UHGV virus genome: UHGV-0374175
Source of the DNA: a virus
Direction: 5' to 3' (one strand)
DNA length: 15,745 nt
The number at the start of each line of letters is the position of its first letter. Positions within the stretch are counted from its first letter, which is position 1. The position numbers and the translations under genes are program-made. Below, piece by piece: positions 1-13,711 of this stretch. The notes under the pieces were generated by a model, which searched no databases, was not told the origin of the DNA, and was given only the letters and a program-made list of their open reading frames with translations.

Positions 1-100
1 CGATCTTGCAAGTATGGGACAACTTGTGAAATTACCGACAAGAAGGGAAAGGGCCTTCCCGAGAGTGGTAAAGGAGAGGCCCTGGAAATACCCCACAGCC

Positions 101-136
101 CCGAAAAAGAGCCAGTCAGTTGCTTAACTGACTGGC
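101..136 (-). terminator. Putative rho-independent terminator on the minus strand
   Basis: Perfect 11-bp inverted repeat GCCAGTCAGTT (111-121) / AACTGACTGGC (126-136) with a 4-nt loop. On the minus-strand transcript the hairpin is followed by UCUUUUUCGG, the complement of the A-run at 104-108. Confidence 0.5.
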
Positions 137-318
137 ATTACTCCAGTGGAGAGCATTTTTACTGTATACATAACCAGTGTCAATGTATGAAATCCTACGA
201 CCATACATCTCACTGAAGCCATAATGAAGTTGGCTATTCTTTTTGCTATGTGAGCATGTAACTTTTGCGGTTAACCTGCGGCTCATTTTTATTTTAGACG
301 CAGATATAAAAACAAAAG

Positions 319-525: not shown

Positions 526-1182
526 CTATTTAACATACTTGACTGTTAAACTTATAATTTTACCAATTATTTCAATGTCTTCTATCTTGCATTCGAAGGC
601 TCTGTTTCCACCCTCGACGAAGATTCTTCCACCGGGTAAACGAGTAATGTCACGGATCGTTATTTCGCCATCAATACTTATTACCCATTTACCATCACGT
701 ATATCATCAAATTCTTTATCACAAATAAATTCAGAATTGTTATCTGTGATGACAAAAGGTTTTTTAAACGTAGAGGGTAGAAATCCCTTATCAAAAATAT
801 AAAAACCGTCTTTCTGCAATGCTCCATCAGACAATAAATATTTTTCTACTTCTATAGTATTTGTATTTGCTGATGCTTGCTTTGAACCATGCCCTGTTGT
901 TAGCCAATTAAGCGAGGTGCCCGTTTCAAGGGCGCACTGGATTACCCAATCTGCTGGAAAAATATCACGCATATAGCGCGTTGCCATGGTGCTCTTAGAA
1001 ACACCTAAATGATCACAGAGAGCCTGACGAGTACCGAACCCATATGCTTCAACTAAACGTTCTATGGCTTTCTTACCGCCGCTATTGAAATCCACAAGTC
1101 CTCCAAAGAAATCCAAAATTCGTTGACAGATTCCAAAAGCGATCTTAAAGTTGAACCAGAAGTGTTCTTTTGGAGCCTTCAC
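526..1182 (-). CDS. cI: Phage 186-type CI immunity repressor
   Basis: The ORF contains ...LVEAYGFGTRQALCDHLGVSKSTMATRYMRD...CALETGTSLNWLTTGHG, which fits my recollection of the N-terminal HTH region of coliphage 186 CI. It is transcribed divergently from the apl/cII early operon. The true start may be the internal GTG at 1095, which is preceded by GGAGGA and would give about 190 aa; the longest ORF starts at ATG 1182. Confidence 0.75.
   Translation of the reverse strand: MKAPKEHFWFNFKIAFGICQRILDFFGGLVDFNSGGKKAIERLVEAYGFGTRQALCDHLGVSKSTMATRYMRDIFPADWVIQCALETGTSLNWLTTGHGSKQASANTNTIEVEKYLLSDGALQKDGFYIFDKGFLPSTFKKPFVITDNNSEFICDKEFDDIRDGKWVISIDGEITIRDITRLPGGRIFVEGGNRAFECKIEDIEIIGKIISLTVKYVK
1123..1151 (+). 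promoter_or_regulatory. Candidate sigma70 early lytic promoter (pR-like)
   Basis: TTGACA at 1123-1128, a 17-nt spacer, then TAAAGT at 1146-1151, upstream of the apl-like gene. It would lie in the intergenic region only if cI starts at the GTG at 1095. Confidence 0.35.
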
Positions 1183-3309: not shown

Positions 3310-3608
3310 CAGGGGCTGTGCGTATCCATCAATTAAAAATTGCACCTAAGTATTTCAACGCTGTGGTTGCAGGTCAAAAGACGGCTGAACTTCGTAAAGA
3401 CGATCGTGGCTATAAAGTTGGTGATGTTCTTTCTCTTTGCGAATGGAAGCATGGCGTATTTACGGGTAGGGAATGGGCCGCGGTTATCTCTCATGTGCTT
3501 CCGGTTAATGACGTCATGGCAGTTTCAGAACAATGGGTGATGCTATCAATTCGCTCATTAACCCCATTAGAAGCTTTAGGATATGTTATTGCAGGAGGTG
3601 CTGTATGA
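3306..3608 (+). CDS. ASCH/PUA-like small protein (DUF3850-like), hypothetical
   Basis: ATG at 3306 overlaps the upstream stop (ATGA) and is preceded by GGAGG. The 100-aa product [33 protein letters not shown]... resembles ASCH-domain proteins often found next to phage methyltransferases. The tracked ORF start at 3246 is probably too far upstream. Confidence 0.6.
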
Positions 3609-4462
3609 GCACCATCCTGAAATGGGCGGGTAATAAAACCACCATTATGTCCGAACTGAAAAAATACCTTCCTGCTGGCACGCGACTGGTTGAACCTTTC
3701 GCGGGTTCTTGTGCTGTGATGATGGAGACGGATTACCCCAGCTATCTGGTTGCGGATATTAATCCTGATTTAATCAACCTCTATAAAAAGGTTGCTGCTG
3801 ATTGTGAGGCGTTTATATCTCGTGCCAGAGCTTTATTTGAGGAAGCAAACAGAGAGGTGGCTTATTACAACATAAGGCAGGAGTTTAATTACTCCACTGA
3901 AATTACTGATTTCATGAAAGCGGTATATTTTCTGTATCTCAATCGTCATGGTTACCGTGGGCTATGTCGCTATAACAAGAGCGGGTATTTCAACATTCCC
4001 TACGGTAATTATAAAAATCCGTATTTCCCTGAAAAAGAAATTCGCGCATTTGCAGAGAAAGCCCAGCGGGCAACGTTTATCTGCGCCAGCTTTGATGAAA
4101 CGCTGGCGATGTTGAAGGCGGGGGATGTGGTGTATTGCGATCCGCCTTATGACGGTACGTTTTCCGGCTATCACACTGATGGCTTCACTGAAGATGACCA
4201 GTATCACCTGGCATCCGTTCTTGAACATCGATCATCTGAAGGTCATCCGGTCATTGTTTCTAACAGTGACACATCCCTGATCCGTTCGCTGTATCGCAAT
4301 TTTACTCACCACTACATCAAGGCAAAACGCAGCATCGGCGTGGCAGCTGGTGAGAGTAAATCTGCAACAGAAATCATCGCTGTTTCCGGGCCGCGCTGCT
4401 GGGTAGGATTTGATCCTTCGCGTGGCGTGGATTGTTCCGTCGTGTACGGAGTGCGTGCATGA
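3605..4462 (+). CDS. dam: DNA adenine methyltransferase (Dam-like, GATC N6-adenine MTase)
   Basis: LKWAGNK and EPFAGSCAV (AdoMet binding), [16 protein letters not shown], and the catalytic DPPY in [10 protein letters not shown]; strongly collinear with E. coli Dam as I recall it. ATG at 3605 overlaps the upstream stop. Confidence 0.9.
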
Positions 4463-6873
4463 GCCATGCTGATATGAACAACTGCAGCGGCTTTAACGAG
4501 GTCGCCGCAGCATTCTCATGGAACAGCCCGAAAAAGGCCATTAACCCTTATCTGGACCCGGCGGAAGTTGCGCCGGTTTCTGCGCTTTCAAACCTGATCA
4601 CTCTGTACGCTGCCGATAACGAGCAGGAACAACTGCGCCGCGAGGCACTGAGTGATCAGGTCTGGGAGCGTTATTTCTTTAATGAATCCCGTGATCCTGT
4701 CCAACGCGAAATGGAGCAGGATAAGCTAATTAGCCGGGCAAAGCTGGCGCATGAGCAGCAGCGTTTTAATCCAGACATGGCCATTCTGGCGGACGTCAAC
4801 GCCCAGCCTTCCCATATCAGCAAGCCGCTGATGCAACGTATTAAATACTTCAGCAGCCTGGGCAGGCCAAAGGCTTATTCCCGCTATTTGCGTGAGACGA
4901 TTAAGCCATGCTTGGAACGACTGGAGCATGTACGCGACAGTCAGCTATCCACTTCTTTTCGCTTTATGGCAAGCCATGAAGGGCTGGACGGCCTGCTGAT
5001 CCTGCCTGAAATGAGTCAGGATCAGGTGAAACGCCTGTCCACCTTGGTAGCTGCGCATATGAGCATGTGCCTTGATACAGCTTGTGGCGATTTGTATGCC
5101 ACCGATGATGTTACGCCAGAAGAAATCCGCAAGACATGGGAAAAGGTGGCAGCGGAAACCCTGCGTCTGGATGTTATCCCGCCTGCGTTTGAGCAACTCT
5201 GTCGGAAAAGAAACCGCCGTAAACCCGTGCCTTATGAACTCATTCCGGGTTCGCTGGCGCGTATGTTATGCGCCGACTGGTGGTATCGGAAATTATGGAA
5301 GATGCGTTGCGAATGGCGGGAAGAGCAGTTGCGTGCTGTTTGCCTGGTCAGCAAAAAAGCATCTCCCTATGTCAGCTATGAAGCTGTGATGCATAAACGT
5401 GAGCAGCGCCGTAAGTCGCTGGAGTTTTTCCGTTCTCATGAACTGGTGAACGAAGACGGCGACACGCTGGATATGGAAGACGTGGTAAACGCCAGCAGCA
5501 GCAACCCTGCGCATCGCCGCAATGAGATGATGGCCTGTGTTAAAGGTCTGGAGCTTATCGCGGAAATGCGTGGTGACTGCGCCGTTTTCTACACCATCAC
5601 CTGTCCGTCACGTTTCCATTCCACGCTAAATAACGGCAGGCCCAACCCGACCTGGACAAATGCGACGGTAAGACAAAGCAGTGATTATCTGGTCGGTATG
5701 TTTGCTGCATTTCGTAAGGCGATGCACAAAGCCGGATTACGCTGGTATGGCGTGCGGGTGGCTGAGCCGCATCATGACGGTACAGTTCACTGGCACCTGT
5801 TGTGTTTTATGCGCAAAAAAGATCGCCGCGCCATTACTGCTTTGTTGCGTAAGTTTGCCATTCGTGAAGACCGCGAGGAGCTGGGTAATAACACGGAACC
5901 ACGCTTTAAGTCTGAGCTGATAAACCCGCGCAAAGGTACGCCAACAAGCTACATCGCGAAATACATCAGTAAGAACATTGACGGGCGTGGTCTGGCTGGC
6001 GAGATCAGCAAGGAAACGGGTAAATCCCTGCGTGATAACGCCGAATACGTTAATGCCTGGGCGTCTCTGCATCGTGTTCAGCAATTCCGCTTCTTTGGCA
6101 TTCCGGGGCGTCAGGCTTACCGTGAACTGCGATTGCTGGCTGGTCAGGCGGCAAGGCAACAGGGTGACAAAAAAGCAGGTGCGCCGGTACTGGATAACCC
6201 GCGTCTTGATGCCATTCTGGCTGCTGCGGATGCTGGTTGTTTTGCCACCTACATCATGAAGCAGGGTGGCGTACTGGTTCCCCGTAAATATCACCTCATC
6301 AGAACCGCTTATGAAATCAACGAAGAGCCGACCGCCTATGGCGATCACGGCATTCGTATTTATGGCATCTGGTCACCCATTGCAGAGGGCAAGATCTGCA
6401 CTCATGCAGTGAAGTGGAAAATGGTTCGTAAAGCCGTTGACGTTCAGGAGGCGGCAGCCGACCAGGGCGCTTGCGCCCCTTGGACTCGTGGCAATAACTG
6501 TCCCCTTGCTGAAAATTTGAACCAACAGGAGAAAGATAAATCAGCTGATGGGGACACCAGAACGGACATTACCCGCATGGATGACAAGGAGTTGCACGAT
6601 TACCTGCACAGTATGAGCAAAAAAGAGCGCCGGGAACTGGCAGCAAGGTTACGCCAGGTGAAGCCGAAAAGGCGTAAAGACTACAAACAGCGAATTACAG
6701 ATCATCAGCATCAGCAGCTCGTCTATGAACTGAAGTCCAGAGGATTTGATGGCAGCGAGAAAGAGGTCGATTTACTCCTTCGCGGTGGCAGTCTTCCGTC
6801 AGGAGCAGGCCTGCGTATCTTCTATCGGAACCAGCGTTTGCAGGAAGATGATAAGTGGCGGAACCTGTATTAA
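4459..6873 (+). CDS. A: Replication initiation endonuclease (P2 gpA / 186 A family, rolling-circle initiator)
   Basis: 804-aa ORF. ATG at 4459 overlaps the Dam stop (ATGA) and follows GGAG. It contains [11 protein letters not shown] (HUH-type metal-binding motif) and YIAKYISKN (catalytic tyrosine region), typical of the P2 A family. Position after the TraR-like ORF matches P2/186. Confidence 0.9.
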
Positions 6874-6942: not shown

Positions 6943-7000
6943 TTTACATCAGTAAGATTATTATATACTGTAAATATAAACATTGGTTATATATACAGTA
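6943..7000 (+). promoter_or_regulatory. Candidate SOS-regulated promoter (p95-like) with LexA-box-like operator(s)
   Basis: TTTACA at 6943-6948 and a -10-like TATACT at 6964-6969. Overlapping this is tACTGTaaatataaACATtg (CTGT-N8-ACAT, 16 of 20 matches to the LexA consensus TACTGTATATATATACAGTA). A second, weaker half-site ends in ACAG at 6995-6998. All lie directly upstream of the tum-like/DinI-like pair. Confidence 0.4.
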
Positions 7001-7025
7001 TTACTTTGGTGTCATAGGAGGAAAG

Positions 7026-7214
7026 ATGCAGGACTATTTTTTGGAGTCTTTGAAGCTCCAGCGCATTGATTTTTTTCTTAAGCTTGTAGCGGCTAGTGAG
7101 TGTAGTGATGAAGAGAAGGGGCTGGCTTTGCAGTGGGTTTCTGAATTGACTGATGAACTCATGGCAAAAATCAGAACCCACGAATACAACCGCTCAATGG
7201 ATGTCGTTAACTGA
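7026..7214 (+). CDS. Hypothetical small protein, possible Tum (antirepressor) N-terminal-like module
   Basis: 62-aa ORF with a strong GGAGG RBS, located between the replication gene and a DinI-like ORF downstream of a LexA-box-like site. This is the position of tum in 186. Confidence 0.5.
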   Translation: MQDYFLESLKLQRIDFFLKLVAASECSDEEKGLALQWVSELTDELMAKIRTHEYNRSMDVVN

Positions 7215-7225
7215 GGGAGTAATTT

Positions 7226-7459
7226 ATGCGCATTGAAATAATGATCGATAAAGAGCAGAAGATTAGCCAGTCTACCCTGGAGGCCCTTGAATCCGAACTT
7301 TACCGCAATCTGCGCCCCCTGTATCCCAAAACGGTAATTCGTATCCGTAAAGGTAGCTCTAACGGTGTGGAACTGACTGGACTGCAACTGGACGAAGAAA
7401 GGAAGCAAGTGATGAAAATTATGCAGAAGGTGTGGGAAGACGACAGCTGGCTGCATTAA
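7226..7459 (+). CDS. DinI-family protein (Tum C-terminal-like / SOS-regulated)
   Basis: MRIEIMIDKEQKISQSTLEALESELYRNLRPLYP...KQVMKIMQKVWEDDSW is collinear with E. coli DinI as I recall it (MRIEVTIAK...ELSRR...ILQETWESADDW). GGGAG RBS. Confidence 0.8.
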   Translation: MRIEIMIDKEQKISQSTLEALESELYRNLRPLYPKTVIRIRKGSSNGVELTGLQLDEERKQVMKIMQKVWEDDSWLH

Positions 7460-7603
7460 GAAACGTTGCTGGCGTCTGAACTTGTTTCTGGCGTCAGCAA
7501 GGTTGAACAACGAGCCCTTGTGAGGCGTTAGCTCTGTAGTGCATGTCTATGCCGCATGAGATCGCATGATCGTTTGAGGATCGTTTTTGCTAAGGCCCGC
7601 CAG

Positions 7604-7628
7604 AACTGGCGGGCTTTTGCGTAGATCA
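7604..7628 (+). terminator. Rho-independent terminator
   Basis: GGCCCGCCAG (7604-7613), 2-nt loop, CTGGCGGGC (7616-7624), followed by TTTT (7625-7628). Confidence 0.7.
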
Positions 7629-7663
7629 TGCAGGTGCATGAAAACCACTACATAAAGCGGGCA

Positions 7664-7682
7664 GGCGTGGCGGGGATACGAG
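7664..7682. other. cos-like motif (possible cohesive-end site of the P2/186 family)
   Basis: GGCGTGGCGGGGA at 7664-7676 matches the first 13 nt of the P2/186 19-nt cohesive end as I recall it (GGCGAGGCGGGGAAAGCAC in P2); the remaining 6 nt diverge. It lies between the replication-side genes and the portal side, where the cos of a P2-family prophage should be. Confidence 0.3.
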
Positions 7683-7690
7683 CGCGCGCC

Positions 7691-7719
7691 TTGCCTTATA
7701 TCTATTTGTTCATTAAAAT
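7691..7719 (+). promoter_or_regulatory. Candidate sigma70 promoter for the retron ncRNA/operon
   Basis: TTGCCT at 7691-7696, 17-nt spacer, TAAAAT at 7714-7719, at the left edge of the AT-rich island and upstream of the palindrome and RT gene. Confidence 0.4.
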
Positions 7720-7725
7720 CATTAT

Positions 7726-7925
7726 GCTCTTTAGTGTAGGAACATTGGTTCCAGCCGGGTGATTAGCCAGGCTTAAATTTATTGTCCGGTTTAGGGTTGC
7801 GAAAGACACAGATTTCTCCTTCGCATCCCTGCCCGGGGCAGATATGCGAAGGAGAAATCTGTGTCTTTCGCTGTCTTTAGTGAAGAGTCAAAGCGCTATG
7901 TAAAGTTGCATAGCGCTTTGGTTTT
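7726..7925 (+). ncRNA. Putative retron msr-msd non-coding RNA (boundaries approximate)
   Basis: Non-coding stretch immediately upstream of a retron-type RT. It contains a 28-bp perfect inverted repeat (the likely msd template stem) and a second 12-bp stem-loop before the RT start. I could not identify a convincing a1/a2 inverted-repeat pair or the branching G by eye, so the ends are not defined. Confidence 0.45.
7799..7871. repeat. 28-bp perfect inverted repeat with 17-nt spacer (probable msd stem-loop)
   Basis: GCGAAAGACACAGATTTCTCCTTCGCAT (7799-7826) is the exact reverse complement of ATGCGAAGGAGAAATCTGTGTCTTTCGC (7844-7871). The spacer itself contains the palindrome CTGCCC-G-GGGCAG. Confidence 0.9.
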
Positions 7926-7937
7926 AAGAGGGGTTAT

Positions 7938-8873
7938 ATGCAACTAACTTCTAAAATTATCAGTAAGTTTAATTATAATAGATTAGCTTTCCAATTACTT
8001 TTAAATGAGGCCCCCAAAAAATATAAAGTTTATTATATTCCTAAACGTGGCGCAGGTTTTCGGGTGATAGCTCAGCCGACAAAGGAACTAAAAAACGTAC
8101 AGAGATTTATAGTATCTTTGCTACAGCCAAAGCTGCCTGTTCATCATAAGGCAATGGCATATGAATATAAAAAAAGTATTAAAGATAATGCATTGTTGCA
8201 TAAAGATAATAATTATATTCTTAAAATGGATTTTCAGAACTTCTTTAACAAAATTAAACCTGATATATTTTTCTCGAAACTTGAGAACACAGGGCTGAAA
8301 TTGGATTCATTTGATGAGAACACCCTACGTAATTTGCTTTTTTGGCGTCCGGGAAAAAAGAGAAGTACAACGTTGATATTAAGTGTAGGGGCGCCAAGCT
8401 CACCATTTATTAGTAATTTTGTTATGTATGACTTTGACAAGAGTCTTGATGATTGGTGCCGTAACAATGGTATCACTTATTCAAGGTATGCAGATGATAT
8501 AACTTTTTCAACTAATATTAAGGATATATTGTGCAGGGTTCCTAAGGTGGTAAAAAAAATGTTGTCGCTCCATGTTCCCGGTCTATCAATCAATGAATCT
8601 AAAACAATTTTTACATCGATGGCTCATAATCGGCACGTGACTGGTGTAACACTTACACCTCAGGGCAATTTATCAATTGGTCGCGATCGTAAAAGGATGC
8701 TGTTTGCAAAGATTCATAAATATTCTTTGGGACTCTTATCTTCCGAAGAAATAAATAAAACCAAAGGGATGATTGCGTTTGCAAATTATTTGGAGGGTGA
8801 TTTTTTATTAAGGTTACAAAAAAAATATGGTTGTGAGTTAATAACTAAGTTCCTGATGGAAGGAAACAAATAA
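7938..8873 (+). CDS. ret: Retron-type reverse transcriptase
   Basis: 311 aa. RT active site YADD (YSRYADDITFS), retron-typical motif NRHVTGVTL (NAxxH / VTG), and RT motifs such as VGAPSSPFISN. GAGGGG RBS. Preceded by structured non-coding DNA. Confidence 0.92.
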   Translation: MQLTSKIISKFNYNRLAFQLLLNEAPKKYKVYYIPKRGAGFRVIAQPTKELKNVQRFIVSLLQPKLPVHHKAMAYEYKKSIKDNALLHKDNNYILKMDFQNFFNKIKPDIFFSKLENTGLKLDSFDENTLRNLLFWRPGKKRSTTLILSVGAPSSPFISNFVMYDFDKSLDDWCRNNGITYSRYADDITFSTNIKDILCRVPKVVKKMLSLHVPGLSINESKTIFTSMAHNRHVTGVTLTPQGNLSIGRDRKRMLFAKIHKYSLGLLSSEEINKTKGMIAFANYLEGDFLLRLQKKYGCELITKFLMEGNK

Positions 8874-10507
8874 TGATAAATAAAATGAATTTAGAGACTT
8901 GCTATGTTGATTTTTTAGAGTTGGAATCACATGTGATAAACGAGGATTATTTGAAGGAGTCTGTTGAGCTTCAAAAGCTAATATCTACTTTAAATGAGAG
9001 TAAGTTTCATTTAAATAAAATAGGTATACATGATTTTAAACGGATAAGAGAACTACAGATTTCCTTAGAAGATGATTTGACTGTTTTTGTCGGGGATAAC
9101 GGATTCGGTAAAAGCACTATTTTGGATGCAATAGCAATTGTTTTGAGTTGGTTGAGATCAAATATTGAAAAGGAGAGTAAGCCTGGTACTTATATTAAAA
9201 GCCATGAAGTTAATAACTCTGTTGATGTTGAGTATGCATCAATTGATGCAAATATAAAACTTAAGGACTTTAATACCAGTATTTTGATTACTAAAGCGAA
9301 AGAGGGGGCATATTATTCTAGAAATAATGAATTGTTGGAGGTAAAAAAACTTGCAAGTATTTATAGACTTGTGAATAAATATGTTGATAATGCAAGCTTG
9401 CCTTTGATGGCATATTATTCTATTGCGCGTTCTTATATAGGCGGTGGGGTTGATAGGAAAAGAAAAAATGCTAAAACTAAAACTGTATGGTCAAAATTCG
9501 ATGTGTATGATGAAATCGAGTTTGACAGAAATGATTTTACCGATTTTTTTCAATGGCTTGTATTTCTTCATAACAGAGCTTCACAAGAGAAATTGAGTGA
9601 GTCACAAACGACAATCAATGCGTTATTTTCAGATATTCAAAGTTTGAAAGCAACATTAACTCAACTATCTGCGATTGATAATATTGATTCAACAGTTATA
9701 AAAGGTTTAGAGCTTTCGCTTAAAGAAAAATTGAACTACATGAAATCTCTGCAATCAGGAGAACATAAGTTTAATAATGCAGTATCACTTTATGATAGTG
9801 TTATAAATACCATTCTAAAGTTCTTGCCTGAATTTCAGTGGATTAAGCTTGTTTATGGTGATGATGATTATAAGATTATCCTTAAAAAAGGAGAGGTTGA
9901 ATTAGATGTTCAACAGTTGTCTCAAGGTGAGAAAACTATATTTACTTTAGTTGGTGATTTGGCTCGACGTTTAATTTTACTTAATCCAAATTTATCTAAT
10001 CCTCTATTGGGATATGGGATTGTTTTAATTGATGAAATTGATTTGCATTTGCATCCGCAATGGCAACAGACAATTATTGAGCGTTTGACATCTACATTCC
10101 CAAATGTTCAATTTGTAGTTACTACCCATAGCCCACAGGTTTTATCCACTGTTAGCTCTCGTTCAGTGCGTATTCTACAGGAAGTGGAAGTAGATGGTGT
10201 TAATGATTTGATAGTGTCTCACCCCGACTATCAAATAAAAGGTGTTAGTAATCAGGATGCACTTTTATATGGAATGAGAACTGATCCTATACCCTCTACT
10301 AAAGAAAATGGTTGGCTTGAAGAATATAAAAAATTGGTTGAGCTTAATCGTTATAGCAGTGACGAGGCTCTTTTGTTAAGAGAAAAAGTTATTAAACATT
10401 TCGGATTAGACCATCCTTTAGTTCAAGAGTGTGATGATCTTATATCTGTTTTGGAGTTCAAAAATAAGATAAATCAGCACTTTTCTGGAAGTAAGGATGT
10501 AAAATGA
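8873..10507 (+). CDS. ABC/SMC-like ATPase (Septu PtuA-like retron effector)
   Basis: 544 aa. Walker A GDNGFGKST, ABC signature-like LSQGEKTIF, Walker B VLIDEIDLHLHP, and a long helical middle region. Its start overlaps the RT stop (TAATG). Confidence 0.85.
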   Translation: MINKMNLETCYVDFLELESHVINEDYLKESVELQKLISTLNESKFHLNKIGIHDFKRIRELQISLEDDLTVFVGDNGFGKSTILDAIAIVLSWLRSNIEKESKPGTYIKSHEVNNSVDVEYASIDANIKLKDFNTSILITKAKEGAYYSRNNELLEVKKLASIYRLVNKYVDNASLPLMAYYSIARSYIGGGVDRKRKNAKTKTVWSKFDVYDEIEFDRNDFTDFFQWLVFLHNRASQEKLSESQTTINALFSDIQSLKATLTQLSAIDNIDSTVIKGLELSLKEKLNYMKSLQSGEHKFNNAVSLYDSVINTILKFLPEFQWIKLVYGDDDYKIILKKGEVELDVQQLSQGEKTIFTLVGDLARRLILLNPNLSNPLLGYGIVLIDEIDLHLHPQWQQTIIERLTSTFPNVQFVVTTHSPQVLSTVSSRSVRILQEVEVDGVNDLIVSHPDYQIKGVSNQDALLYGMRTDPIPSTKENGWLEEYKKLVELNRYSSDEALLLREKVIKHFGLDHPLVQECDDLISVLEFKNKINQHFSGSKDVK

Positions 10508-11187
10508 AATATCTATCTAGGCAAATGCCAGGGCCTTCCGTTCTTAATAAATTTGACTATAGGAGGGATGATTGGAATTCCCTATCATCAAATGATAAAA
10601 AAGAAATATGGGAAGAAATAATAAAAATGCAAGGTAAATTATGTGCTTATTGCGAGAAAAAAATAGAGCATCATAAAAGTGGTGACAAAAATAAAGTTGA
10701 GAGGCATATTGAGCATTTTTACAGGAAAAGTTATTACAAAAATTTAACTTTCGAGTGGTCTAATTTGTTTGGCTCATGTGGTGAGCCGCAAAGGTGTGGG
10801 TTTTATAAGGATAAGCAAAAATATAACGATGATGATTTAATTAAAGCTGATAGACAAAATCCAGATGTTTTTTTCCATTTTTTGGAAAATGGTGATGTTC
10901 ATATTAGAGAAGGCTTGAATGAGAAAGAACACAAAATGGCAGAGGTTACGTTAAGAGTATTTAACTTAAACCCGTCCTCAGGAGGAGTCAAGGCGGAAAG
11001 AAGACGTGCAATAGAATTAAGCATGACATTAATAAAGGAACTGGTCGGATGTGCATCTCAGCTTATTGAATCAGGATGTGAAATTGAAGATGTTAGATCT
11101 ATGGTCTTTGATGAGTTTAAAAAGAATGTAAAAGATAGATGCTTTACCACTGCGATAAAGCATGTTTTTGAGAATAGAATGCCTTAA
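10504..11187 (+). CDS. HNH endonuclease (Septu PtuB-like retron effector)
   Basis: 227 aa with CAYCEKKIEHH...ERHIEHFYRKS...NLFGSCGEPQRCGFY (Cys pairs plus His-rich HNH core). Its start overlaps the ATPase stop (ATGA). Confidence 0.85.
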   Translation: MKYLSRQMPGPSVLNKFDYRRDDWNSLSSNDKKEIWEEIIKMQGKLCAYCEKKIEHHKSGDKNKVERHIEHFYRKSYYKNLTFEWSNLFGSCGEPQRCGFYKDKQKYNDDDLIKADRQNPDVFFHFLENGDVHIREGLNEKEHKMAEVTLRVFNLNPSSGGVKAERRRAIELSMTLIKELVGCASQLIESGCEIEDVRSMVFDEFKKNVKDRCFTTAIKHVFENRMP

Positions 11188-11210
11188 AGGTTAGAGGGAT
11201 GTATATATAA

Positions 11211-12242
11211 TTAATCTATATTATATTCTGAGAAATTGATAATATGCATCCCTATCCACTGATTAAATTCATGGATTTTTTTTTGTAGAGGTACTAATTC
11301 ATTTGTCACAAAAACCTTACTAGCTTTCTCCACATCCCCAAACCCCCCAACATTATTCGGCATAATCCCCATCATTTGCGGCGGCACACGGTGTGCCGCC
11401 ATCATGTCGTCCCGGCTCACGTTCTTGATATTCAGAAATTCATCCTTCGCTGCAACTTCTGACAACGGGATGATCTGAAGCCCGTCCTTTTTGCCGTTAG
11501 GCGAGTACATAAACAAGTTACGGAAGTTGCCCGGTCCTTTGGCGTTTTTCATCGCGTTGCGGAGGTTGTTCACATCCTCCTGGTTCTGCGCGGCGTCAGT
11601 CATATACATGATGAAGCCTGCATGACTGCCGTTAATGTAATACTTGCGGCGGAACAGCGTGGCGGACTCGTTGAGCAGGGCTGACGGAATGGCAGAAAGA
11701 TAACCGGGCAGGCCGTAGATCTCCTGGTTGATGTCCGGTTCCATCAGATGAAAAATGCTGCCTTTCGCGAACTGATACGGCTGGGTTGTCATACCGTATT
11801 GCACAAACCAGTAGGTATCCAGGTCTAACCCGCGTCGGGTGTATTTTGCCAGCGCAGGCTCAAGGGCGATAACTTCACCGAATCGGTTCGTGCGTTTCTC
11901 CAGGTAGGCGTTACCAAATACCAGATAGTCCAGCACAAAACGCGAAAAAGCCTGCTGGCTGAGAAGCGGGTGAGGGATGTAGGTGCTGGTCAGAATGTTG
12001 CATTTCACTGCAATTGGTGAACTGTGATGCACGGCAGCGCGGAAGGTGCGCGCCAGTCCGTCAAAGCTGACGGGAGGCTCATACCAGCGATCTGTCTGTA
12101 CGCATTCCACATAGTCCAGCAGTTCGCGGCGGTCAAGTACTGGAATGGGATCACCGAAGCTGAATGCTTCGGCTGAAGCTTGGCTTTTATGCTGGATCTG
12201 GTTCGTCGCCGCAGCGCGTTTTTTTTTACTCTTTCCCATCAA
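11211..12242 (-). CDS. Q: Portal (capsid portal vertex) protein, P2 gpQ family
   Basis: 343-aa ORF matching my recollection of P2 Q in length and arrangement. It is convergent with the cargo island, and its start overlaps the stop of the upstream terminase gene (ATGA), as in the P2 P-Q operon. Confidence 0.85.
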   Translation of the reverse strand: MMGKSKKKRAAATNQIQHKSQASAEAFSFGDPIPVLDRRELLDYVECVQTDRWYEPPVSFDGLARTFRAAVHHSSPIAVKCNILTSTYIPHPLLSQQAFSRFVLDYLVFGNAYLEKRTNRFGEVIALEPALAKYTRRGLDLDTYWFVQYGMTTQPYQFAKGSIFHLMEPDINQEIYGLPGYLSAIPSALLNESATLFRRKYYINGSHAGFIMYMTDAAQNQEDVNNLRNAMKNAKGPGNFRNLFMYSPNGKKDGLQIIPLSEVAAKDEFLNIKNVSRDDMMAAHRVPPQMMGIMPNNVGGFGDVEKASKVFVTNELVPLQKKIHEFNQWIGMHIINFSEYNID

Positions 12243-13120: not shown

Positions 13121-13711
13121 GGACCAGAACGGATACCGCCCGTTGCGGCTGTGATGGAAAGTGATGAAGCGTTACGCCTGCGTGTGCCTGCAGCCTTTGA
13201 AGGGCTTTCTGTTGCTGGGCCAACTGCCGCTTATGAGTTTCATGCACGAAGCGCCGACGGTCGGGTGGCGGATGCCAGTGCAACCAGTCCGGCACCTGCA
13301 GAGGTGGTGCTTACGGTCCTAAGCCGTGAAGGCGACGGAACAGCAGAAAAAGACCTGCTGGATGTGGTGGAGAAAGCCCTGAACAGTGAGAACGTCCGCC
13401 CGGTGGCTGACCGTCTGACGGTTCGCAGCGCGGAAATCATCCCGTACCGCGTGGAAGCCACCATTTTTCTCTATCCGGGGCCGGAAGCAGAGCCGGTAAT
13501 GGCAGCGGCAAAAGCCAGCCTGCAGAGGTACATCGCCAGTCAGACGCGGCTTGGTCGGGATATTCGCCGTAGCGCCATTTTTGCCGCGCTGCATGTTGAG
13601 GGTGTTCAGCGTGTGGAACTGGCTTCCCCGCTGGCGGATGTGGTCATGAACAAAACGCAGGCGGCATCATGTACGCAGTGGAGCGTGACCAACGGGGGTA
13701 CGGATGAATAG
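13121..13711 (+). pseudogene. J: Baseplate assembly protein J (P2 gpJ family): C-terminal fragment
   Basis: ...IPPVAAVMESDEALRLRVPAAFEGLSVAGPTAAYEFHARSADGRVAD...GRDIRRSAIFAALHVEGVQRVELASPLADVV... matches the C-terminal two-thirds of P2 J as I recall it. The N-terminal part is missing. The 5' portion of the tracked ORF (12431-13120) is antisense to the terminase fragment and is not J. Confidence 0.75.

Follow-up and report, generated by a model that had tools for sequence, protein, structure and literature searches.

A probable tumA-tumB SOS operon with an overlapping double LexA operator in a defective Fels-2-type prophage of Escherichia coli

The region at 6943-7619 of the window, the whole 15,745-nt stretch of DNA that was analysed, is very probably the SOS operon of a Fels-2-type (P2/186) prophage, in which LexA-controlled tumA and tumB would antagonise the CI repressor. 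The window derives from a prophage of the P2/186 family whose host is E. coli. The anatomy of the locus, the homologies of its products, and the conservation of its promoter and operator are the demonstrated part of this reading. A tumA/tumB SOS operon of the Fels-2 type is already known, having been annotated in PSP3 and reported for Fels-2, and the novelty is modest: a colicin-like double operator, a private mutation within that operator, and the lack of a curated family for TumA.

The window carries a 186-type CI gene (526-1095, minus strand, 189 aa), followed by cox/apl-like and cII genes, dam (3533-4462), and the replication gene A (4432-6873; gpA, PF05840), which sits upstream of the tum module. 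The module itself (promoter, operator, tumA, and tumB; 6943-7459, plus strand) is followed by an Ec78-type retron encoding a reverse transcriptase (RT), the PtuA ATPase, and the PtuB HNH nuclease (7938-11187), and by a portal gene (11211-12242, minus strand). The 62-aa and 77-aa ORFs that a preliminary description of this DNA placed downstream of a promoter are present at 7026-7214 and 7226-7459, and both begin with ATG. An opposite-strand ORF of 158 aa (7034-7510) was considered as a gene and rejected, as it matches no family. The tum module lies between gene A and the right end (cos), and this order matches that of 186, PSP3, Fels-2, and SopEPhi, all of which exhibit gene A, a promoter with a LexA box, tum or tumA/tumB, and the cos end. 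The module is widespread in the host species, being carried by 1125 of 5426 complete E. coli genomes (~21%).

The tum promoter and its two LexA boxes

The tum promoter possesses a -35 hexamer, TTTACA (6943-6948, plus strand), separated by a 17-nt spacer from a -10 hexamer, TACTGT (6966-6971, plus strand), which is also the start of the first LexA box. This is the geometry of the 186 promoter p95, where a TTCACA -35 hexamer and an 18-nt spacer precede an annotated TACTGT -10 hexamer that is likewise the first hexamer of a LexA box. The distal box, box 1 (TACTGTAAATATAAACATTG, 6966-6985), has the core CTGT-N8-ACAT at 6968-6983, and the proximal box, box 2 (CATTGGTTATATATACAGTA, 6981-7000), has the core TTGG-N8-ACAG at 6983-6998, such that two 16-bp LexA cores have one base in common and together occupy 6968-6998. 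The LexA-like CTGT-N8-ACAT operator that had been pointed out in the preliminary description is therefore genuine as a sequence element at 6968-6983 but is only half of the operator, the second box having been overlooked. As a single 16-mer, CTGT-N8-ACA[G/T] is not beyond chance expectation, with two matches in the window versus 0.81 expected and an equal count in 45 of 200 shuffles. The 31-nt composite operator, by comparison, occurs once in the window and in none of 200 shuffles.

A heterology-index matrix, derived from the 18 E. coli LexA sites in Table 4 of PMC3009722, was used to score every 20-mer of the window. The known sites score 1.8-12.2 and both tum boxes fall inside this range, at 8.65 for box 1 and 6.56 for box 2, while the remaining 20-mers of the window score at least 15.1, with the exception of a third box at 160-179. 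When the whole window was block-shuffled 200 times, a score as good as 8.65 was attained by only two 20-mers and one as good as 6.56 by none. Of the 20 positions of box 2, 15 agree with the published dinG LexA site (TATTGGCTGTTTATACAGTA).

Conservation across relatives was assessed in 120 IMG/VR contigs collected with a degenerate operator pattern, in which the half-sites and the -35 hexamer are kept while free variation is seen in the promoter spacer and in the middle of box 2. The ACAG of box 2 is retained in 117 of these 120 contigs, next to a spacer that is free to vary, and GTTTTACAT is at least 90% conserved among 82 distinct relatives, again with a variable promoter spacer. Half-sites and a -35 hexamer conserved amid variable spacers are what a functional promoter and operator typically show. 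A CTGT-N8-ACAG LexA box lies 11-37 nt upstream of the start codon in all nine tumA-type loci that were inspected, and four of the nine (Fels-2, SopEPhi, E. coli phage 813R9, and Yersinia phage MLG42) exhibit the double operator CTGT-N8-ACAGTGG-N8-ACAG. A generic promoter and terminator scan of the window detected neither the tum promoter, the -10 hexamer of which is too weak for such a scan, nor the hairpins after tumB. In sequence terms, then, a LexA operator overlaps the tum promoter. A literature search with the operator sequences found no description of a Fels-2-type tum double box, and two reviews of the P2 family make no mention of tum.

The closest counterparts of the double operator outside these phages are found on plasmids. 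A 39-nt query of the Fels-2 operator matched 1181 plasmids, mostly small and mobilizable. In a ColE1-like plasmid, TGCTGTATATAAAACCAGTGGTTATATGTACAGTAT lies upstream of the colicin E1 start codon, and on a Klebsiella plasmid its counterpart is found 43 nt upstream of the gene for a bacteriocin. The Fels-2 operator shares 90-92% identity with the ColE1-like and klebicin operators over 39 nt, and no difference from ColE1 is seen in its 22 proximal nucleotides. The operators of ColE1 cea and of klebicin/cloacin consist of two 16-bp LexA cores with a one-base overlap, the junction of which reads ...CAGTGG... there but CATTGG in the window, and the boxes of colicin promoters lie downstream of the -10 hexamer, whereas box 1 of the window overlaps it. 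Since the operators alone are similar and the -10 hexamer is placed differently, shared descent and convergence cannot be told apart from these sequences. Double boxes of colicin genes are reported to bind two LexA dimers and to repress very tightly, despite the mediocre heterology indices of the single ColE1 boxes, 7.48 and 11.06 (PMC2994835).

The window resembles 186 in having an SOS operon after gene A, a 186-type CI, and homologous N-terminal and DinI-like parts. However, 186 encodes a single fused tum of 146 aa with internal starts where the window has two genes, has a single perfect LexA box where the window has a double overlapping operator, and carries the cargo gene orf97 inside its SOS operon where the window has no cargo before cos. 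The two-gene order of the window is that of Fels-2 (STM2728/STM2726.1), SopEPhi (orf10/orf11), and PSP3 (tumA/tumB). Fels-2 and SopEPhi possess the same double LexA operator, but with G rather than T at the common base, while PSP3 has a single LexA box and its TumA belongs to a different sequence subfamily (phrog_1993). Unlike these three, the copy in the window resides in an E. coli prophage without int and morphogenesis genes. [quoted passage not shown]

A private operator variant in a defective prophage

The base common to both LexA boxes, 6983, is T in the window and G in its relatives. The equivalent base is G in 119 of the 120 IMG/VR contigs and in the intact, retron-bearing sister prophage of E. 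coli SC475, and the sequence from E. coli E308 is identical across 116 nt save for this one base, which is G there. An exact 56-mer carrying the T allele was found in none of the 935 E. coli genomes that carry the operator, and among species-representative genomes the T-variant operator is absent and the G variant was found three times only. The T was also seen once in another lineage (L115), which is just ~83% identical to the window, suggesting that it arose there independently.

The change converts the operator junction from CAGTGG, as in Fels-2, SopEPhi, ColE1, and klebicin, to CATTGG, with the spacing and both outer half-sites present. The score of box 1 worsens from 4.39 in the Fels-2 (...ACAG) form to 8.65, while that of box 2 is slightly better with T (7.66 to 6.56). 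It is the outermost base of a CTG triplet that is altered, and non-consensus bases at the same triplet position occur in dinG (TTG) and in the proximal box of ColE1 (GTG). Judged by these comparisons, the G-to-T change probably weakens box 1, and box 2 comes to resemble the dinG operator. Since both boxes remain within the known score range and the triplet position is tolerated in dinG and ColE1, LexA control would be expected to be weakened but retained, and the operon is most likely still LexA-controlled, if perhaps leakier, with LexA binding weakened rather than lost. Repression through box 1 could nevertheless be badly impaired, as the altered base is the guanine of its CAG, which is invariant in 18 of 18 reference LexA sites.

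It is this guanine that gives some weight to a harsher reading, in which the mutation largely abolishes LexA control, such that tumA-tumB is constitutive or very leaky and CI is chronically antagonised. The size of the drop in box 1 quality points the same way, and the rarity of the T allele, which was seen in none of the 935 E. coli genomes and in one of the 120 viral contigs, is as expected for a change that is normally counter-selected; with the lysis and head genes lost, much of the cost of derepression would vanish. This reading is nonetheless unlikely, given that neither box scores outside the span of proven LexA sites, dinG, dinB, and polB among them, that functional operators deviate at the very same position, that box 2 is unchanged or slightly improved, and that the same T is seen in an unrelated lineage.

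The inability of the prophage to form particles, proposed in the preliminary description, is borne out at both ends of the window. Positions 1-145 are an IS4 end that is 100% identical to E. coli IS4 copies and adjoins the point where int starts in relatives, int thus having been replaced. Alignment to the intact SC475 prophage ends at 13135, within the terminase gene, and the sequence continues as a baseplate J gene; this fusion indicates that the prophage lacks its head and lysis genes as well as some of its tail genes. By contrast, tumA and tumB are intact, as are CI and the early operon, and their proteins are 97-100% identical to those of intact prophages.

The tum module might be a functionless relic that drifts in a dead prophage without consequence for the cell, a view to which the IS4 replacement of int, the terminase-baseplate fusion, and the private operator mutation all lend themselves. 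The same comparison makes this quite improbable: the entire early operon is preserved together with tumA, tumB, and CI at the identities given above, and the control region differs by one substitution in 116 nt. Intact genes and a single substitution across that distance suggest that decay is very recent at most and that the circuit should still run.

Downstream hairpins, cos, and the retron

Two predicted hairpins follow tumB on the plus strand. The first (7462-7504), directly 3' of tumB, is conserved and lacks a U-tract, and its stem sequences differ between relatives by compensating changes. The same hairpin and the motif GGTTGAACAACGAG come after orf97 in 186, and in the window this motif lies between the first hairpin and the second. 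The second hairpin (7592-7619) is GC-rich and is followed by UUUU; it is inside a stretch that aligns with the 186 cos junction and is kept in relatives that lack a retron. From its position and predicted fold, the second hairpin is likely to be the 3' end of the operon. Its designation as a simple operon terminator was dropped, as it is also part of the cos flank common to 186 and its role is ambiguous. The cos site (GGCGTGGCGGGGATACGAG, 7664-7682) exhibits 78% identity with the 186 cos junction in an alignment of 94 nt (E 5e-16).

The retron is found beyond cos, in the interval that ends at the portal gene, and so does not occupy the position that orf97 has inside the 186 SOS operon. A promoter-like site of its own is present at 7691-7719, and the matrix scan found no LexA-like 20-mer anywhere in 7001-11200. 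An Rfam scan of the whole window gave no match, and the retron ncRNA and the hairpins are therefore not in Rfam.

The preliminary description had raised the possibility that readthrough ties retron expression to DNA damage, and this found no support. That SOS transcription from the tum promoter reads into the Ec78 retron is suggested by the adjacency of the two on the same strand, by the absence of a U-tract from the first hairpin and the presence of only four U after the second, and by the behaviour of 186, where the SOS transcript continues through the partial terminator t95a into orf97, the cargo gene that follows. Coupling of this kind is very unlikely, however, since the 186 transcript stops at t95b, ahead of the cos flank, and since two hairpins, cos, and the promoter-like site of the retron stand between the tum operon and the retron, where no LexA box is found. 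A variant of the idea takes in the operator mutation, and its chances are slimmer still: the T at 6983 may make tumA leaky or hypersensitive to low SOS levels, such that the early operon is readily switched on and the Ec78 retron is raised by mild damage, either via readthrough of cos or via in situ A/ori replication. Were this the case, the induction switch of a dead prophage would have become a damage-responsive controller of a defence system.

TumA, TumB, and the proposed SOS circuit

Both genes of the module are preceded by their own Shine-Dalgarno sequence. That of tumA (AGGAGG, 7016-7021, plus strand) was read from the sequence and is conserved in relatives, and that of tumB (GGGAG, 7215-7219, plus strand) begins right after the tumA stop codon (7212-7214). 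The distance from the tumA stop to the tumB start is 11 nt, which would be compatible with translational coupling. The proposal that the two ORFs constitute a split tum, an antirepressor half followed by a DinI-like half, is upheld by the homologies set out below, but the arrangement was known already: a stop codon divides tum into two genes in Fels-2 and PSP3 (Lemire et al. 2011, PMC3121763), and the upstream half carries the antirepressor activity in PSP3 (PMC3121763). The GenBank annotation of PSP3 names tumB and describes tumA as 'similar to 5' end 186 tum; UV induction of prophage', and STM2726.1 of Fels-2 is annotated as similar to PSP3 TumB.

TumB (77 aa, 7226-7459, plus strand) is a DinI-like protein, as had been suspected, matching PF06183 with 81.6 bits against a cut-off of 24.2 (E 5e-23). 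Alignment to 186 Tum, which the preliminary description had recommended, places it on the DinI-like C-terminal half, residues 71-145, with 40% identity (E 1e-23), and 186 also makes this part of Tum separately, from an internal GTG start. TumB exhibits 98.7% identity with Fels-2 STM2726.1 and 76.6% with PSP3 TumB, and it matches the solved structure of E. coli DinI (1GHH) over its full length (E 1e-5). Although TumB and E. coli DinI belong to the same PF06183 family, TumB scores 41.7 bits against the NCBIfam DinI equivalog NF007893 and does not reach its cut-off of 111, suggesting a DinI-like phage paralogue rather than the DinI of the host.

TumA (62 aa, 7026-7214, plus strand) exhibits 98.4% identity with Fels-2 STM2728 and 87% with SopEPhi orf10, but its pairwise identity to the N-terminal part of 186 Tum is too low for BLASTP, which returned no alignment between the two. 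A first homologue search gave, among the matches listed, only proteins that are at least 81% identical and no fused proteins, and hhalign with shallow profiles of these close homologues was suggestive only (P 1.2e-3); the link to Tum became convincing only once diverse representatives were added. A profile of close TumA homologues was therefore searched against 1.84 billion representative proteins, giving 87 matches, most of which are stand-alone proteins of 50-75 aa. No full-length fused Tum is among the significant matches of that search, and in the lack of such a fusion intermediate the link between TumA and Tum rests on profiles. An HMM of the TumA family, built exclusively from representative matches with E <= 1e-6, aligns to residues 5-48 of 186 Tum in the same register with 33.9 bits (E 1.2e-12 for a single comparison), and a probability of 96.7% (E 3.8e-10) was obtained with hhalign when the other profile was made from homologues of the 186 Tum N-terminus. 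The PHROG families cross-match accordingly: the 62-aa ORF matches phrog_698 (its own family), phrog_8554, and phrog_1993; the 186 Tum N-terminus matches phrog_1993, phrog_8554, and phrog_698 (E 2.4e-5); and PSP3 TumA matches phrog_1993. The similarity to the Tum N-terminal region that had been anticipated is thus present, in the form of remote homology.

Several features of the wider family are informative about what TumA may do. The close relatives of the 186 N-terminal half commonly include entries named 'Tum protein' that stand alone at 63-78 aa. Phages of the ESSI-2 type have kept a LexA box and a tumA-like gene without any DinI gene, which fits TumA as the essential induction factor. Although TumA hardly varies, the CI proteins with which it is paired share only 38-50% identity with one another, and its target surface is for that reason putative. 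A PDB sequence search with TumA gave no match. An AlphaFold2 model of TumA forms a two-helix hairpin (mean pLDDT 89.7), for which Foldseek returned generic helical hairpins only, none at E <= 0.001. Pfam and NCBIfam contain no family for TumA, and its PHROG matches are all labelled 'unknown function'. By analogy with 186 Tum and PSP3 TumA, TumA would be a CI-binding antirepressor. That the operon instead pairs a DinI-like SOS modulator with a small protein of some other function could be argued from these missing or uninformative family labels and from the lack of a solved relative or informative fold match, but is very unlikely in view of the profile homology to the Tum N-terminus, with its register kept from residue 4, the retention of a tumA-like gene alone behind the LexA box in ESSI-2-type phages, and the UV induction ascribed to PSP3 tumA in its annotation.

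The presumed target of TumA is the CI repressor encoded at 526-1095 on the minus strand, which is 100% identical to an annotated E. coli CI. Its assignment to the 186 type holds, as it possesses Phage_CI_repr and Phage_CI_C domains and shares 33% identity with 186 CI. Peptidase_S24 scores 16.1 bits, under its cut-off of 23.3, and no autocleavage domain lies above threshold.

LexA binding, the interaction between TumA and CI, and the role of TumB are proposed here from what is known of 186, PSP3, Fels-2, and SopEPhi. Tum of 186 is a LexA-controlled antirepressor (PMC3121763), and expression of the SopEPhi antirepressor Tum is SOS-dependent according to a review (PMC9827884). In the window, a weak sigma-70 promoter (TTTACA, 17 nt, TACTGT) would be covered by the two LexA boxes, with two LexA dimers occluding the -10 hexamer and the transcription start. 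DNA damage would activate RecA and lead to self-cleavage of LexA, whereupon the tum promoter would fire and TumA and TumB would be produced. TumA, as a two-helix hairpin, would then bind the non-cleavable 186-type CI and prevent it from binding its operators, as proposed by analogy with 186 Tum and PSP3 TumA, and inactivation of CI would open the early lytic operon of cox/apl, cII, fil, dam, and A. TumB may modulate RecA filaments and thereby the strength or timing of induction, in the manner of DinI and the short 186 Tum products. Induction would yield no phage here, since the prophage no longer has int, its head and lysis genes, or a complete set of tail genes.

For the Fels-2-type family, the colicin-style overlap of two SOS boxes predicts tight repression and late induction of tum, and the T copy in the window, as a natural single-base operator variant, would be useful for testing the role of the shared base in LexA binding. 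For E. coli, the finding means that what is probably a key induction gene, present in about one fifth of genomes, is annotated as 'hypothetical protein' or, wrongly, as 'levan regulatory protein', a mislabelling that stems from the absence of a Pfam or NCBIfam model and from PHROG families of unknown function.

The former integrase end and the extent of the prophage

The left end of the window (1-145) is the end of an IS4 element, with 100% identity to E. coli IS4 copies, and stands in place of the prophage integrase gene (int). A minus-strand hairpin followed by a T-run lies inside this IS4 end (about 137-105). A third LexA box, TACTGTATACATAACCAGTG, is present at 160-179 and has a strong score of 5.59 (lower is better; known E. 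coli sites score 1.8-12.2 on the same heterology-index matrix). The box is located within the spacer of a promoter that reads the minus strand and has its -35 TTGACA at 183-178. In relatives, E. coli KY202 among them, the start codon of int follows the corresponding promoter by approximately 30 nt, suggesting that the int promoter is SOS-inducible in the lineage of the window. In the window, int is absent and the LexA-box promoter (160-183) points at the IS4 end. On the right side, the match to the intact sister prophage of E. coli SC475 stops at approximately 13135, inside the terminase ATPase gene, and beyond this point the window runs on in a baseplate J gene, indicating that the head and lysis genes and part of the tail genes were deleted from the prophage.

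The cos site, right-end hairpin and retron Ec78

The phage cos site, GGCGTGGCGGGGATACGAG, was located at 7664-7682, and its counterpart in phage 186 is GGCGTGGCGGGGAAAGCAT. This position indicates that retron Ec78 is cargo flanked by cos on one side and the portal gene on the other, so that in the packaged genome it and the tumA-tumB pair are at opposite ends. A hairpin and downstream motif occupy 7462-7536 and are also found in 186 (about 8346-8420) and PSP3. The hairpin stem exhibits many compensating changes across relatives, and the motif downstream of it, GGTTGAACAACGAGCC...GAGGCGTTAGC, is invariant. Phages 186, PSP3 and those of the Fels-2 type all keep hairpin and motif at their right end irrespective of the preceding gene; the element may mark the 3' end of a transcript or take part in packaging.

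The stretches 7799-7871 and 7889-7945 contain an inverted repeat of 36 nt (perfect-type), which presumably forms the msd stem of Ec78, together with smaller inverted repeats directly 5' of the RT gene; Rfam returned no family match for this inverted-repeat region. The retron of the window is present at 99.7-99.8% identity in four complete E. coli genomes, and in SC475, the one of the four that was inspected, it lies within an intact prophage. The same site in strain N10 is occupied by a diverged retron of the Ec78 type, whose non-coding region resembles that in the window.

The tum operator, TumA and its presumed repressor partners

The G-to-T change at the base shared by LexA boxes 1 and 2 of the tum promoter (window 6983) also occurs in IMGVR_UViG_2700989593_000009 (7954, minus strand), whose phage lineage shares only about 83% identity with the window. 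This recurrence indicates that the change arose independently in that lineage and is tolerated at least occasionally. In the P2-like phages ESSI2_ev015 and Cronobacter phage ESSI-2, one LexA box accompanies a tumA-like gene and there is no DinI-like gene, the following genes leading towards the portal gene, and so the DinI half seems dispensable for a tumA-type module.

Neither Pfam nor NCBIfam has a model for the TumA family (window 7026-7214; entries P0012, H39 and H40), and the PHROG families it falls into carry the label 'unknown function'. In some database records the protein bears the name 'levan regulatory protein', apparently a mistaken annotation passed between records. TumA is 97-98% identical among the window, SC475 and Fels-2, whereas their CI repressors (window 526-1095, SC475 prophage 1340-2221, Fels-2 3592-4224) share only 38-50% identity overall; conservation is much higher in the N-terminal DNA-binding domain, which is present in duplicate in the SC475 CI (293 aa). 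Near-identical TumA beside such diverged repressors suggests that one TumA type is able to act on several immunity types, perhaps via the CI N-terminal domain.
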